Shown: positions 47,272-55,294 of the stretch, piece after piece
Numbering within the stretch: the stretch's first letter is position 1
Layout: every line of letters starts with the position of its first letter
Source: an uncultured bacterium
GTDB taxonomy: Bacteria; Chlamydiota; Chlamydiia; Chlamydiales; SM23-39
NCBI GenBank assembly: GCA_965370365.1
Contig: CBDUSP010000001.1
Location: forward strand, 1 to 62,557
Length of the DNA stretch: 62,557 bases
Direction of reading: 5' to 3'
Notes under the pieces: generated by a model
Told to the model about the DNA's origin: nothing
The model's database searches: none
The model's input: only the letters and a program-made list of their open reading frames with translations
Translations under genes and position numbers: made by a program

Positions 47272-47359
47272 TATTTGAAGAAGTATTAGAGTTCATCTAA
47301 AAAGTTCGTAGAAATAAAAAAGCCGGGATTATTTCCCGGCCTTTTTGGTTTGGAGGTGG
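47272..47359. repeat. distal copy of the ssrA-proximal direct repeat (terminator, last 9 nt of ssrA, and first 8 codons of gene 54489..55238)
   Basis: tatttgaagaa..attaga.ttcatctaaaa.gt...agaaataaaaaagcc.gg...tggaggtgg aligns with 55214..55294 at roughly 80 percent identity. It encodes the truncated MNSNTSSNILHP followed by a stop. Confidence 0.7.
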
Positions 47360-47418
47360 TTGGACGCGTTCAGAACTTTTGATTGGGGAAAATTCAATAT
47401 TCTCTTCACTCATCTGCT

Positions 47419-47619
47419 CTAATCGAAATAATGTCGAAATAAGAGAACTTGTTCTTCAAGATTTTCCCGACTCAATTGTTCTGGTATGATATCAAAAATC
47501 TCTACCCACGTCTCAGAATGAACTGGAAAAAGGTGGAAATGGACGTGAGGGATGTCCTGAAGGCTGTGTTGAAAAATTGATCTGATCGCGGAGAGAAGTG
47601 ATTCAGACTTTATCCGCAA
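47419..47619 (-). pseudogene. HIT-family (histidine triad) C-terminal remnant
   Basis: DIPHVHFHLFPV fits the HxHxHxx triad. It is only 66 aa with a TTG start and a stop two codons upstream. Confidence 0.3.
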
Positions 47620-47638
47620 ATTTCACATTAACAGCGTA

Positions 47639-47947
47639 CTAGCCACAGATTCGAGTTACTTCCCCATCAGCCACTTCCTTATCTTCCCAGAGAGCTATAC
47701 TTTTTCCAACAGATAAATTGGACAATGCCAAATCTGTATCTAAAAATTTCACTGGAAGTTCATAATACTCTCCTAACTTCACTTCCTTGTCCCCGATCAA
47801 CAATCGACAGTCATATGCCTTGCCATCAACCATTAAGGGGCATGCATAAAAGTTTGGCCCAAGAGAAGTCTTACGCTTCAAAGAAGTTTTTCGTCCTCCT
47901 TCTGCACTTGTTTTGAATCGCACTTTAACATAAATATCCGGTTCCAT
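47639..47947 (-). CDS. hypothetical protein, candidate immunity protein of the truncated toxin tip upstream
   Basis: AAGGAG Shine-Dalgarno. Starts 11 nt after the stop of the start-less toxin-tip frame. Confidence 0.4.
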   Translation of the reverse strand: MEPDIYVKVRFKTSAEGGRKTSLKRKTSLGPNFYACPLMVDGKAYDCRLLIGDKEVKLGEYYELPVKFLDTDLALSNLSVGKSIALWEDKEVADGEVTRICG

Positions 47948-47957
47948 TTAAATCTCC

Positions 47958-48140
47958 TTATTTAGGGACTGCCATCCAGTTCACAACTTCAGGAATTAAT
48001 CTTTCTAGTTGTTGATCAGGAATTACTCTTGCAGGAATACCTCCATCAACTAGGGTAGATGCTCCACCAAGATCTCCCTTAGGAATTTGTGTTCTGATTA
48101 GCGTATACGGAGGGGATCTCCGAATTTCTTTTGGACATTG
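47958..48140 (-). pseudogene. start-less C-terminal toxin-tip fragment (orphan polymorphic-toxin remnant)
   Basis: The open frame QCPKEIRRSPPYTLIRTQIPKGDLGGASTLVDGGIPARVIPDQQLERLIPEVVNWMAVPK begins directly after the stop of 48141..48383 and has no ATG/GTG/TTG near its beginning. Confidence 0.3.
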
Positions 48141-52483: not shown

Positions 52484-53187
52484 TTAAGTTGATAACCCAG
52501 ATTTGATCCAGCTCACTATATTGATATGAGATTTTTCAATGGCATCGCCAGGACTCTTATCAAAGGGAATAGGCCAAGAACGGAGATTAGGGTATTGCTT
52601 TATCCAAAAAGGATACTTTTTTTTCCTGCCTCATCGAAATCTAATGATAAAAGTATTATAGAGGCCTTTTTAAGCCATTCATGAGTTTCAATATCGGGTT
52701 TTTTGCTAACGCCGCCCAAGGCCATACAGCAGACCAAATGAGCAGCCTCTTGTTGAATCAGCATAGCATCGAGTTCAGATTCGACGATTAATACTGGTTT
52801 TGATTGATCTCCATAGACTGAGGGTGTCTGTTTGCTTCCAGATACTTCGACGTATTTTGGAAACTTGTCTTCTTCAAACCAATCATCGCGTCGGATTTTT
52901 AGCTTAGTTGGTTTATCATTCGACCAGGAAGGGATTACGATGCATTTGGGTAGCCATTGCCGTCTAGGGTGACCATTCTCTTTCATTTCTTTGAGTAGCC
53001 CCCAATTTTCCCTTCTATCGAAAAGCTCATTGGGGTTCCAACCGAGCGAAAATTGTCGCATAGTATTTAGGGAAAGTCCTCGTTTGGAAAGAAGCTCAAT
53101 GATTCGAGGTTCATTCATCAATTGCTTGTGCGAAGAATGAATGAAGTTCTTAGCTGCATTCTGCCATGATGGTGAGACAGGTGACAC
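52484..53187 (-). pseudogene. Toprim-domain DNA primase fragment (phage/plasmid type), N-terminally truncated and frameshifted
   Basis: VLIVESELDAM (Toprim Glu) and LSLDFDEAGKK (DxD). After the A8 run at 52614..52621 the homologous sequence continues in another frame as YPFWIKQYPNLRSWPIPFDKSPGDAIEKSHINIVSWIKSGL. No zinc-finger N-terminus is present. Confidence 0.65.
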
Positions 53188-53287
53188 TACTTTGGGGCAT
53201 TTTCTTGAACATACCCTTGCAAATTTCCATGTTCGTCTAAGAAGTAGCCGCCAGAATTGCTAGCAAATGAAAAAACCCCGATTATTC

Positions 53288-53725
53288 CTAAGATAATCTG
53301 AACCATGACATTACTCCTCTGTTTTTGCTTTGTTCTTCTAAATATGCTTTGTGTTGCTCGTTTAGCGCGTTTATAACTACTTCTTTTGTATGTAGTGGTA
53401 GTTCACTTCGCAACACGTTTAAGACAAATGAGGCGTTTTTAGATGGTTTATAGTCTTTTAAAATCTCTTCTAAAATAGCTTTTTGATAAGCGATTTGCTT
53501 TTCTTGTTCTTTCTGAATCTTTTCTCTCTCGCGTTCTCTTTGTTTTTTTGCTATAGCCATTTCCATGCCTCGGCTAAAGCCGTTGCCTAGGCCTTTTCCA
53601 AGTTCATGCCCTACCCCTGGAGGTGGTGGTGGTAAAACTTGAACCGCACAAATAGCGGTTGAGGTCGATGCTAATGCAGCAATCAGTGCTATCAATTTTT
53701 TAAACAAAGTCATAGATGCTAACAA
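53288..53725 (-). CDS. hypothetical secreted coiled-coil protein
   Basis: Signal peptide LFKKLIALIAALASTSTAICA, a PPPPP stretch and a charged KQREREREKIQKEQEK segment. Confidence 0.45.
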   Translation of the reverse strand: MLASMTLFKKLIALIAALASTSTAICAVQVLPPPPPGVGHELGKGLGNGFSRGMEMAIAKKQREREREKIQKEQEKQIAYQKAILEEILKDYKPSKNASFVLNVLRSELPLHTKEVVINALNEQHKAYLEEQSKNRGVMSWFRLS

Positions 53726-53812
53726 TCAATTAGTTGTGTTGGTGTATTATAATTACATCACATAAAACAAATCAACTAGAAATGTATCAAAAAATAAACT
53801 AATCAATATCGC

Positions 53813-54496
53813 CTAAAGATTTTCATAAAACATGTTTGTATCCCATGAAGAAATACACTCATAAGACTTGGTCGCTTTATCAATAAGCGAAAAAAGCGGA
53901 TATGCGTTGTCAAGATGCCCCTTGAGTTGATCAAGGGGAATTTTCACAATAAAAGGCTCATCGTAAACGCCACCAACTGAATAGGGCTGGAAAATAACAA
54001 TTATATTCTTGTCATCCACTACGAAGGTATGGACGTTCTCGTATTTTAGCACGGTATAGAGCGGCTCATTTCCAGAAAAATGGGACATAAGATTCTTCTT
54101 AAGACCAACTTCGCAGATAGTCCTTAGAAACTCTTTTTGTTCTTTTGTTTGAAAAAGATCATCCAATGTGATTTCTTTCCATTGGCCTTCAATTTTACAG
54201 AGCGTTTTCCCTTCGTACTGTTTCCAACCATGGGGTAAGCGATCCTGGACGGTGAGTTCGCCAAATAAGCTGATTAGATTTTCGGAAAAAAATATCGTCC
54301 GAAACCTGTAGTTAAAGCTGAAGGGACCTTCTTCGATAGCGCTCTTTGTGCAGATTTGTTGCAGAAATTCATCCTTGAGGGTGGAGAGATTATCCGTCTT
54401 AGTCGGAACAACCTCTTTTTGCTGGCAACCGGATAACATGATTCCCACAGAAAAGATTATGCTTGCTAATCTGCACATATAATCCTTCCTATGCAA
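53813..54496 (-). CDS. lipoprotein, DUF3298/DUF4163-like
   Basis: Lipobox MLSGC. C-terminal VIFQPYSVGGVYDEPFIVKIPLDQL resembles the DUF3298 pattern. Confidence 0.5.
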   Translation of the reverse strand: MHRKDYMCRLASIIFSVGIMLSGCQQKEVVPTKTDNLSTLKDEFLQQICTKSAIEEGPFSFNYRFRTIFFSENLISLFGELTVQDRLPHGWKQYEGKTLCKIEGQWKEITLDDLFQTKEQKEFLRTICEVGLKKNLMSHFSGNEPLYTVLKYENVHTFVVDDKNIIVIFQPYSVGGVYDEPFIVKIPLDQLKGHLDNAYPLFSLIDKATKSYECISSWDTNMFYENL

Positions 54497-55238
54497 TCAG
54501 TTGAAAGGGTTTAGCCCTATATTCCGGGCGAAGATAAGTACTTCCATTTTTTAAACGAATAATAACGGCATGAAGCCTTCCTTCGCTTGCCAAAGTTACA
54601 GCCCCCGTTTTTTGCATCCAAACGCATCCTTTTGGCTTGCTAATGCAATATTCGAAGATGACCCTTCGCTTCTTATGAACTCCGGAGATGCTCCATTTTT
54701 CGATAAAATCTGCCCTTCCGGCTGCCCACCCTTCAACAAATTCGATCGCCTGCCAAAAAACATTAAACTCCTTATCGTTTAGCGATTTGATTGTTCTTTC
54801 CGGATCAAGCCCCGTCCTATCCACAACAATATCGATATAGTCTTTTTTGTGTGATTCGTAGTACAGCAGAGCCGATCGTAGCGTTTTAGGAGAGTACACA
54901 GAGCCACGTAGCATCACAGTGAGCGCTTCTCGCCCAGTTTCTTTATCAGGATAAACGGCATATTCATTTTCAGTATCCCCAGCAAAACCGATCGCTTTTC
55001 GTTTCTTACTCATACTGTAGGAACTTCTGCGGAGATTACCAGGGTTATTACATCTCCATGCACGGCTGCCACCGCTACGGATTGTCATATTTCCATCTTC
55101 ATCAAAATACTGGACTGTAAACTTACTTTCAGGATCTCCGATATTCGCAGGCCCTGTTTTGGCTCGTATAAATGCCATTTTAAAATCTCTTCTAGTTGTT
55201 TGTCTAAATAGGGTATTTGAAGAAACATTAGAATTCAT
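54489..55238 (-). CDS. hypothetical protein (N-terminal W.CNNPGNLR motif region, C-terminal DUF3892-like region)
   Basis: SRAWRCNNPGNLRRS...YAVYPDKETGREAL and a C-terminal GV.K...I.EY......W...GAV.L...G....V....G.TYLRP pattern. Its first 8 codons lie inside the island direct repeat. Confidence 0.5.
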   Translation of the reverse strand: MNSNVSSNTLFRQTTRRDFKMAFIRAKTGPANIGDPESKFTVQYFDEDGNMTIRSGGSRAWRCNNPGNLRRSSYSMSKKRKAIGFAGDTENEYAVYPDKETGREALTVMLRGSVYSPKTLRSALLYYESHKKDYIDIVVDRTGLDPERTIKSLNDKEFNVFWQAIEFVEGWAAGRADFIEKWSISGVHKKRRVIFEYCISKPKGCVWMQKTGAVTLASEGRLHAVIIRLKNGSTYLRPEYRAKPFQLIA

Positions 55239-55294
55239 CTAAAAGTCTGCAGAAATAAAAAAGCCAGGCTTCTGCCTGGCTCGTATGGAGGTGG
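55214..55294. repeat. proximal copy of the ssrA-associated direct repeat
   Basis: Aligns with 47272..47359. Contains the ssrA terminator and the ssrA 3' end. Confidence 0.7.
55257..55280 (-). terminator. rho-independent terminator of ssrA
   Basis: On the minus strand: gccaggc-agaa-gcctggc followed by TTTTTT, 5 nt after the tmRNA 3' end. Confidence 0.7.

Follow-up and report, generated by a model that had tools for sequence, protein, structure and literature searches.

A recombinase-less islet at the tmRNA gene of an uncultured chlamydia bounded by a conserved 36-nt arm-plus-core site

In Dehalococcoides, genomic islands lie in tandem downstream of the single-copy transfer-messenger RNA (tmRNA) gene, ssrA, between 20-bp direct repeats of the ssrA end; a 15-bp conserved motif that cannot be aligned to ssrA immediately precedes each repeat, the side of the left attachment site (attL) carries a large serine recombinase gene, and about half of the islands lack an integration module and have been proposed to be cis-mobilizable (McMurdie et al. 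2011, PMC3146451). Cis-mobilizable elements (CIMEs), as summarized in the relevant passages of a review (PMC5704250, on Pavlovic 2004 and Bellanger 2011), have lost their integration genes, keep attL and the right attachment site (attR), and occur as tandem remnants at the 3′ end of their target; in the same passages they are defined for decayed integrative and conjugative or integrative and mobilizable elements (ICEs/IMEs) with tyrosine integrases in streptococci. The tmRNA gene is named as the most enriched island target in the passage of PMC4383910 that cites Williams 2003 ('Traffic at the tmRNA gene'), and the Islander approach, which takes tyrosine integrases into account, needs an integrase gene in each island (PMC4383910). 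For chlamydiae, our search of the full-text literature for islands linked to tmRNA or tRNA genes turned up only unrelated papers and Pam100G of Protochlamydia amoebophila, which the passages of PMC548262 devoted to it describe as a 100-kb island with F-like transfer genes and short flanking direct repeats. Here we describe an islet next to ssrA in a 62,557-nt stretch of DNA from an uncultured member of the Chlamydiota (contig CBDUSP010000001.1; the whole stretch is called the window).

We consider it likely that window positions 47351-55299 are a 7.9-kb islet that was inserted site-specifically into the 3′ end of ssrA and is now without a recombinase of its own. A first-pass annotation of this DNA had proposed an island anchored at the tmRNA gene, and the att-type boundary, the atypical composition, the cargo shared with the ssrA side of other genomes and the lack of a recombinase all agree with that proposal. 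The target gene is intact. It lies at 55283..55651 on the minus strand (Rfam RF00023, 117.7 bits, E = 2.4e-45), and alignment to genus homologues showed it to be collinear with them end to end and equally intact. Its mature 3′ end, the discriminator A, is position 55286, at which CACCTCCA, the 3′ strand of the acceptor stem plus the discriminator, ends; CCA is not encoded. The attL core consists of the last 14 nt of the gene (TCTCTCCACCTCCA, 55286..55299, minus strand), and the last 9 of these are common to the left site. ARAGORN made no tmRNA call on the window, though four of the relatives' scanned loci received one, and the Rfam score is the lowest when compared with the relatives (124-170 bits).

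At the far end, the boundary is a 36-nt arm-plus-core site that reaches beyond 9 nt of ssrA. A nucleotide search of the island against loci fetched from other genomes gave many matches at 47299-47408, and led to an attR-type hybrid site at 47351..47386 (minus strand), in which the arm CCAATCAAAAGTTCTGAACGCGTCCAA is followed by CCACCTCCA, the end of ssrA; read in the ssrA direction (47386..47351), the full site is CCAATCAAAAGTTCTGAACGCGTCCAACCACCTCCA, a conserved 22-nt arm joined to the ssrA 3′ end. In the consensus of this family, CCAATCAAAAGTTCTGAATGCG precedes the last 14 nt of ssrA, which stay constant at the 3′ side of the arm sites of other genomes, and most copies continue into a hairpin terminator. 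An initial set of fetched loci, mostly ssrA neighbourhoods, contained 51 copies of the site family. In a census of 103 genomes of the window's family, the arm-plus-core pattern was present in 59, up to 11 times per genome, and the reversed pattern, used as a control, gave 0 matches. Among 74 loci chosen by their ileS gene alone, 27 carried at least one arm site. All arm sites in this set (41 of 41) lay downstream of ssrA and were co-oriented with it, at spacings of 0.25-8.4 kb (median 1.7 kb). Genome G088 has six arm sites in 8 kb, between units of one or two genes (G, L and C denote comparison genomes, comparison loci and contigs). The window's own genome (1.48 Mb, 99.7% complete by estimate) has exactly one arm-type site, with TCCAA in place of TCTCT before CCACCTCCA, and identical copies of this variant occur in G055, G062, G077 and G088. 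The earlier view that a 3′ end of ssrA served as the integration site is thereby strengthened, as the boundary belongs to a conserved att-type family beside ssrA. The same annotation had called the element fixed and eroding; the att site is not eroded, because identical copies exist in other genomes, and 'fixed' holds only because this genome is without the recombinase.

The arm also serves a second gene. In G097 and G012, arrays downstream of tRNA-Tyr carry the same arm joined to TCCAGCCGCCCCCA, the last 14 nt of that gene; such sites are at 3457-7880 in L291 (G097:C9), 3894 in L292 (G012:C93) and 4065 in L289 (G005:C3). In ssrA and tRNA-Tyr the arm junction falls at the same structural position, the last base of the T-loop. 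The core variant of the window, TCCAA plus CCACCTCCA, resembles a hybrid of the tRNA-Tyr-type and ssrA-type sites. We also considered that XerCD might use the sites, in the manner of IMEX elements, and saw no dif-like sequence in the arm site on inspection by eye, with no dedicated XerCD search made.

Composition and cargo also set the segment apart. The GC content of the islet is 0.402, compared with 0.435 +/- 0.010 for same-sized windows of its own genome (1.2 percentile), and in tetranucleotide usage it departs from the genome average to a degree that ranks at the 99.6 percentile; the islet is an outlier by both measures, of which GC had been suggested as a check in the first-pass annotation. 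Islet modules recur by ssrA in other chlamydiae at identities above that of the neighbouring ileS, and in either orientation relative to ssrA, depending on the genome. The clearest case is a MerR/TipAS regulator (49352-50128, minus strand; Pfam) and, divergent from it, genes for glyoxalase/VOC, EVE, MarR and APH phosphotransferase proteins (50305-52470, plus strand; Pfam). Over 2.2 kb, the MerR-glyoxalase-EVE-MarR block is 80.4% identical in nucleotides to a block directly beside ssrA in a metagenome-assembled genome (MAG) of the Simkaniaceae, whose ileS is only 65.9% identical to that of the window. In G112, MerR and APH are found again next to a displaced ssrA core, and in L219 they lie near ssrA; APH also occurs in L223 and L163. 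The Pfam assignments match the earlier description of a MerR-controlled, resistance-like operon.

A stretch of about 90 nt that begins with the last 9 nt of ssrA is present twice. Positions 47268-47359 match 55210-55294 at about 78-84% identity; a BLAST search of the whole genome with the left copy returned the right copy as the sole match (84% over 62-63 nt, E = 1.8e-12), and a gapped alignment of the full copies gave 72 matches in about 92 columns (about 78%). Self-alignment and the genome-wide search thus bear out the repeat of about 85 bp at about 80% identity noted in the first-pass annotation. Read in the ssrA direction, each copy opens with the last 9 nt of ssrA (CCACCTCCA); past a short spacer comes a hairpin terminator, with about 55 further nt behind it. 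The ssrA end and the terminator are also as annotated. The two hairpins are two compensatory pair changes apart, and both fold far better than shuffled sequences. The right copy (55210..55294, minus strand) joins the ssrA end, a terminator at 55261-55282 and the leader of the first islet gene, and the left copy (47268..47359, minus strand) joins the ssrA end, a terminator at 47322-47340 and a leader remnant, each by alignment, BLAST and folding. The first 8 codons of the next gene, which the annotation had counted into the repeat, probably do not belong there: all 269 homologues of that gene are about 229 aa long and start at an internal methionine (55178), so the repeated part is probably a 5′ leader and not coding. 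We interpret the left copy as what remains of an older, related islet, namely its head, truncated about 30 nt short of the start codon. The repeated leader was sought in the other loci and was not found there. The tail of the left copy, an A-rich spacer with a GGCCGGG hairpin, is nearer to the native ssrA tails of relatives than is the present right tail.

No tyrosine or serine recombinase is encoded on the window contig (PF00589 and PF00239 searches), as the first-pass annotation had stated, and no serine recombinase was found anywhere in the window's genome. In other chlamydial genomes, a large serine recombinase lies beside attL in the complete elements. The recombinase of G005 has 521 aa with Resolvase, Recombinase and Zn_ribbon_recom domains, and its gene converges on tRNA-Tyr, which it overlaps with its 3′ end; an arm/tRNA-Tyr site lies 10.5 kb downstream. 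Homologues, or 3′ fragments of them, overlap the ssrA core in G030, L138, G031, G045, G079 and G064 and tRNA-Tyr in G012, and truncated copies adjoin ssrA in L259 and L247. The family was detected in 23 of the 103 genomes, often as fragments only. We also observed that the G005 recombinase open reading frame (ORF; L299, G005:C3, 5961-7526) lacks a stop codon ahead of the att core and runs antisense through the entire tRNA-Tyr gene, so that the protein would have one C terminus when the element is integrated and another when it is circular. These contexts suggest that the recombinase using the arm sites is most likely a member of this large serine recombinase family, and not the tyrosine integrase that the first-pass annotation had expected; in the intact elements its gene overlaps the end of the target tRNA or tmRNA gene (tDNA).

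The sites with their distribution and orientation, the recombinase gene context, the cargo homologies and the composition are observed; from them we infer that recombination took place, in what order the events fell, and that mobilisation acts in trans. The near end (attL) would be the intact tail of ssrA and the far end (attR) the 22-nt arm of the element joined to the ssrA end. The acting enzyme would be the large serine recombinase, its gene placed in intact elements at the attL side with the 3′ end overlapping the tDNA. With every inserted unit, ssrA would receive a new terminator, carried at the head of the unit, and the arm would come at its tail; the islet headed by the 229-aa and lipoprotein-like genes would have been inserted in front of an older related islet, of which only the head survives (47268-47350). 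Since each unit would start with a terminator and end with an arm, the repeat could be the head of two related units, one inserted before the other, and survival of the older head before the newer islet would explain the repeat of about 85 nt at about 80% identity. A still older scar at 45403-45425 would mark the end of an array of about 9.9 kb. The interior of the islet would be a mosaic of fused cassettes in which three genes have decayed, namely those of the primase, of the RHS fragment and of what may be a HIT remnant.

Two other explanations would do without any insertion at a specific site. The terminators might resemble each other by chance or in a generic way, and the repeat would then mark no boundary, a reading in keeping with the hairpin terminator in both copies and with related hairpins at 45.36 and 46.2 kb. 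We give it hardly any credence, as the repeat has only two copies in the genome, at E = 1.8e-12, the similarity runs about 55 nt past the hairpin, and no further copy of the terminator modules of this locus exists anywhere in the window's genome; a generic terminator family, which the first-pass annotation had named as the case against its proposal, is contradicted by the same observations. Alternatively, the region could have been reshaped after DNA uptake by homologous or homology-facilitated illegitimate recombination, with ssrA and ileS as the anchor and the repeat as a by-product of duplication or microhomology. Exchange of chromosomal DNA by homologous recombination is known in chlamydiae, according to the part of PMC8278220 that treats it; the left copy shares just 9 nt of ssrA, and the direction of the modules with respect to ssrA varies between genomes. 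However, the left joint is a 36-nt site whose sequence, position and orientation are kept in dozens of genomes and at two tDNAs, which is not expected of illegitimate joints, and we regard this origin as improbable.

A stronger competitor, although still an unlikely one in our judgement, is that the islet derives mainly from an element with a tyrosine integrase, a DUF927 helicase and a primase, and that the arm site is an unrelated earlier leftover, so that two or more element types would have contributed to the locus. Complete related elements do exist beside ssrA: the search for intact tyrosine-integrase elements proposed in the first-pass annotation found them in two other chlamydiae (G112 and G102), where a 360-aa tyrosine integrase is accompanied by a 678-698-aa protein and small genes. 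L211 has an element beside ssrA with a DUF927 helicase, a full 353-aa primase and, at the edge of the fetched stretch, a probable tyrosine integrase, and the primase pseudogene of the islet is 69% identical to that primase. Perfect 21-26-nt direct repeats of the ssrA T-loop type bound 2.5-5.4-kb islets in G005, G011 and G018, the scar at 45403 belongs to this longer type, and the window's genome has related integrases at tRNA-Asn and tRNA-Met. The sole boundary site of the 7.9-kb segment is nevertheless of the arm type, and no T-loop-type repeat is present at 47.3 kb. The primase remnant, moreover, is inverted relative to its orientation in L211, and the element of G005 with the serine recombinase has a DUF927 helicase as well, so that the two element types have replication modules in common.

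Several observations weigh against the insertion of a serine-recombinase islet that we prefer. The window site shares with the resident ssrA only 9 contiguous nt, or 11 of 14, which is less than the common site type does, and a search for decayed internal arm sites between the islet modules found none better than chance. For most arrays, no serine or tyrosine recombinase gene is present on the array contigs, in several genomes with arm sites a Xer-like pair is all that was seen, and the link between the arm sites and the serine recombinase family is one of repeated genomic context. The best full-length relative of the primase is in the element with the DUF927 helicase and the probable tyrosine integrase, so part of the islet may come from another element type. 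The nearest genomes in all collections have only about 72-77% identity in IleRS, exact-protein look-ups with the two flanking genes gave no match, and synteny around ssrA is poor in all relatives.

The first islet gene encodes a 229-aa protein (54489..55178, minus strand), with the reading frame open up to 55238. It had no Pfam or NCBIfam match, and its weak PHROG matches (4.8e-5 and 5.8e-4) are to a domain found in endolysins and tape-measure proteins of phages. We considered this head gene as a hidden recombinase and rejected the idea: it has no recombinase signature, only weak matches of the phage cell-wall-enzyme type, and in L259 and L293 it does not adjoin a site. Its partner (53813..54496, minus strand), which overlaps it by 8 nt, is lipoprotein-like with a weak DUF3298 match. 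In L295 the two genes make up a separate cassette of 1.5 kb with an arm site on either side, and in the tRNA-Tyr array of G097 a homologue of the 229-aa protein is again the first gene past an arm site. The pair is widespread in chlamydiae as a two-gene cassette, judging by the 269 homologues, and might encode a cell-wall-acting effector and its inhibitor. Directly past ileS in the window (58932-60445) are an AbiEii toxin gene (Pfam, 6.4e-31) and an upstream partner; since L293 has a similar AbiE pair next to its 229-aa/DUF3298 genes, accessory DNA may be present on that side of ileS as well.

Farther from ssrA, a 145-aa protein (53288..53725, minus strand) has a signal-peptide-like N terminus, and sequence and hidden Markov model (HMM) searches found no family for it; signal-peptide or lipobox-like N termini on two genes fit the two secreted or lipoprotein genes annotated earlier. 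The primase pseudogene (52484..53187, minus strand) was delimited by three-frame translation and homology: it is without the zinc-finger part, is frameshifted near 52600-52621, matches the PHROG primase at 2.3e-16, and shows nucleotide homology over 52538-53170; its full-length relative in L211 has CHC2 and Toprim domains. The earlier call of a frameshifted primase is upheld. An orphan RHS fragment (48386-49351, minus strand; TIGR03696, 69.6 bits) keeps the last ~60 residues of the core and a C-terminal tail, and downstream of the tail lies an 80-aa gene (48141-48383, minus strand), likely an immunity gene. Homologues of both, at 72%, occur in L250. The RHS call of the first-pass annotation is borne out. 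Two ORFs complete the islet on the minus strand, one of 102 aa (47639-47947) and one of 66 aa (47419-47619); the latter has the HxHxH motif on which the annotation of a HIT remnant can be maintained as a possibility, and no HMM match supports it.

The array continues to the left of the islet, at 45.4-47.3 kb. In the ssrA direction the order of the locus is ssrA, terminator 55, the 229-aa/lipoprotein cassette, further modules, the arm plus CCACCTCCA (47386-47351), terminator 47, the leader remnant, a glycosyltransferase-like gene, terminator 46, a 190-aa ORF, the scar (45425-45403) and terminator 45. The glycosyltransferase-like gene (46300..47238, minus strand; RXYLT1_C and GT47 matches below cut-offs) is followed by a terminator copy at 46201-46241. 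It has one to several paralogues in genus relatives, some in tandem and always in other contexts. The 190-aa orphan ORF (45428..46000, minus strand; HMM searches) lies between two terminator modules that are 93% identical. The scar is an older remnant of the ssrA 3′ end (GAGTTCGACTCCCTCCATCACCA, 19/23, 45403..45425), co-oriented with ssrA, and is the sole sequence in the genome, ssrA itself aside, within four mismatches of the ssrA end. Its position would make it the far end of the array of about 9.9 kb, and in extent it agrees with the T-loop-type repeats of relatives, which points to an older event in which a different recombinase type acted. Past the scar, a terminator predicted by folding (45362-45381) is convergent with csp (45084-45290). 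The three related terminators fit former ssrA tails that were displaced repeatedly.

Repeated ends of ssrA are common in the family. The last 21 nt of ssrA are present in 81 family genomes, in at least 17 of which they occur at least twice, and G049 has a four-copy direct array. Inverted pairs were seen in G084 (C1, 758382(-)/1738746(+)) and G102 (C2, 950018(+)/979985(-)), with 30 kb to 980 kb between copies, and may be inversions from recombination between att sites. The adjacency of ileS and ssrA is kept everywhere, and the DNA after ssrA differs in each relative. As a conserved far flank of the hot spot we considered csp and rejected it, for csp is near ssrA in G018 only; an HI0933-like gene, a candidate ancestral neighbour of ssrA, was found in G015 only and in the opposite orientation. 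Many MAG contigs stop 2-760 bp past the 3′ end of ssrA, a pattern typical of a repeated or variable junction. Such breaks were seen in G002:C88, G007:C8, G003:C132, G004:C49, G006:C10, G008:C148 and others, with second core copies at contig ends, and repeated att cores appear to break the assemblies of related MAGs.

The tyrosine-integrase elements have a sequence signature of their own. The motif ATTACGCAnnnTTTACGCAC is part of a conserved block past the ssrA terminator, about 100 nt after ssrA, in six relatives (L062, L064, L068, L069, L074 and L077), and in G102 and G112 (L117 and L118) the block is found again a short way upstream of the gene for the 360-aa tyrosine integrase. In L062 (G005:C25), a run of N lies about 170-270 nt after ssrA, directly past this block. 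We rejected the motif as part of the islet, as it is absent from the window and its genome and belongs to the tyrosine-integrase elements, for which the block is probably an arm or operator site. The window's genome itself has two small tyrosine-integrase elements, beside tRNA-Asn (C5:4603-5969) and tRNA-Met (C36:3604-4911); their integrases share 47% and 34% identity with the 360-aa integrase that is linked to ssrA in G112, and no att repeats of these elements were found on those contigs.

Chlamydiae are obligate intracellular bacteria, and their gene exchange is an open topic. One tentative extension of our reading, which we hold to be possible and somewhat less than an even prospect, is that environmental Chlamydiota have a phylum-wide cassette platform, in which ssrA and tRNA-Tyr are docking sites for terminator-headed, arm-tailed cassettes moved by a serine recombinase acting in trans, as a main route of gene exchange. 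The cassettes may measure 0.25-8 kb and often carry defence, toxin-immunity or resistance-like genes, and the recombinase may be encoded on a minority of elements, with its gene running into the attachment site of the circular form (attP). Such a platform, in which a serine recombinase is linked to a portable arm site at ssrA and tRNA-Tyr arrays, is apparently undescribed so far. If it exists, it would be a main gene-exchange route between obligate intracellular bacteria that share a host cell. Closer to the data, about 10 kb of accessory, partly decayed DNA is set apart from the core of the window's genome, and the frequent assembly breaks right past ssrA in related MAGs have an explanation. 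The conserved 36-nt site is searchable and marks acquired DNA at ssrA or tRNA-Tyr in more than half of the family genomes, which offers a handle for cataloguing a mobile pool of resistance-like, toxin-immunity and defence genes. It also nominates a pair of serine integrase and att sites, perhaps a genetic tool for a group that is hard to manipulate.

Integrons encode the tyrosine recombinase IntI beside attI and use folded single-stranded attC sites. The chlamydial arrays are like integron arrays in layout only: units of one or two genes end in a conserved site, the platform is fixed and the recombinase lies outside the cassette. They differ from integrons in that the platform is a tDNA from which the sites themselves derive, no recombinase gene lies beside the arrays, and each unit has a terminator rather than relying on a platform promoter. 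With Pam100G, as described in PMC548262, the islet has in common that it is a chlamydial island between short direct repeats, whereas Pam100G differs in its size of 100 kb and its transfer genes. As in islands of the Islander type, the target gene is regenerated and a displaced 3′ fragment lies in direct orientation at the far end (47351-47364, with a second fragment at 45403). The islet has no integrase gene inside it, however, and as Islander needs one and considers the tyrosine type, it would be filtered out.

The likeness to CIMEs goes further. Integration and transfer genes are missing from the islet, recognisable attL and attR are kept (the ssrA end, and a site with identical copies in four genomes), and the islet lies in tandem with remnants at the 3′ end of ssrA; the difference is that it has no conjugation or mobilisation genes. 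With the Dehalococcoides islands the chlamydial loci share tandem ssrA arrays, a conserved non-ssrA motif directly upstream of the ssrA-end repeat, here the 22-nt arm, a serine recombinase at attL in complete members from other chlamydial genomes but not in the window, and units without a recombinase. The 15-bp motif of Dehalococcoides, TTCAGRSMGMRKCCA, agrees with the window arm, TTCTGAACGCGTCCA, at 13 of 15 positions in our own comparison, which we offer as a lead and not as proof of homology, and the chlamydial recombinase is placed among the large serine recombinases by its domain architecture. The chlamydial sites belong to another phylum, contain 14 nt of ssrA (9 in the window) rather than 20 bp, bound much smaller units (median about 1.7 kb, often one or two genes), and have an arm that serves tRNA-Tyr as well. 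The locus is a recombinase-less tDNA islet, and among described systems it stands nearest to the ssrA islands of Dehalococcoides and to CIMEs.

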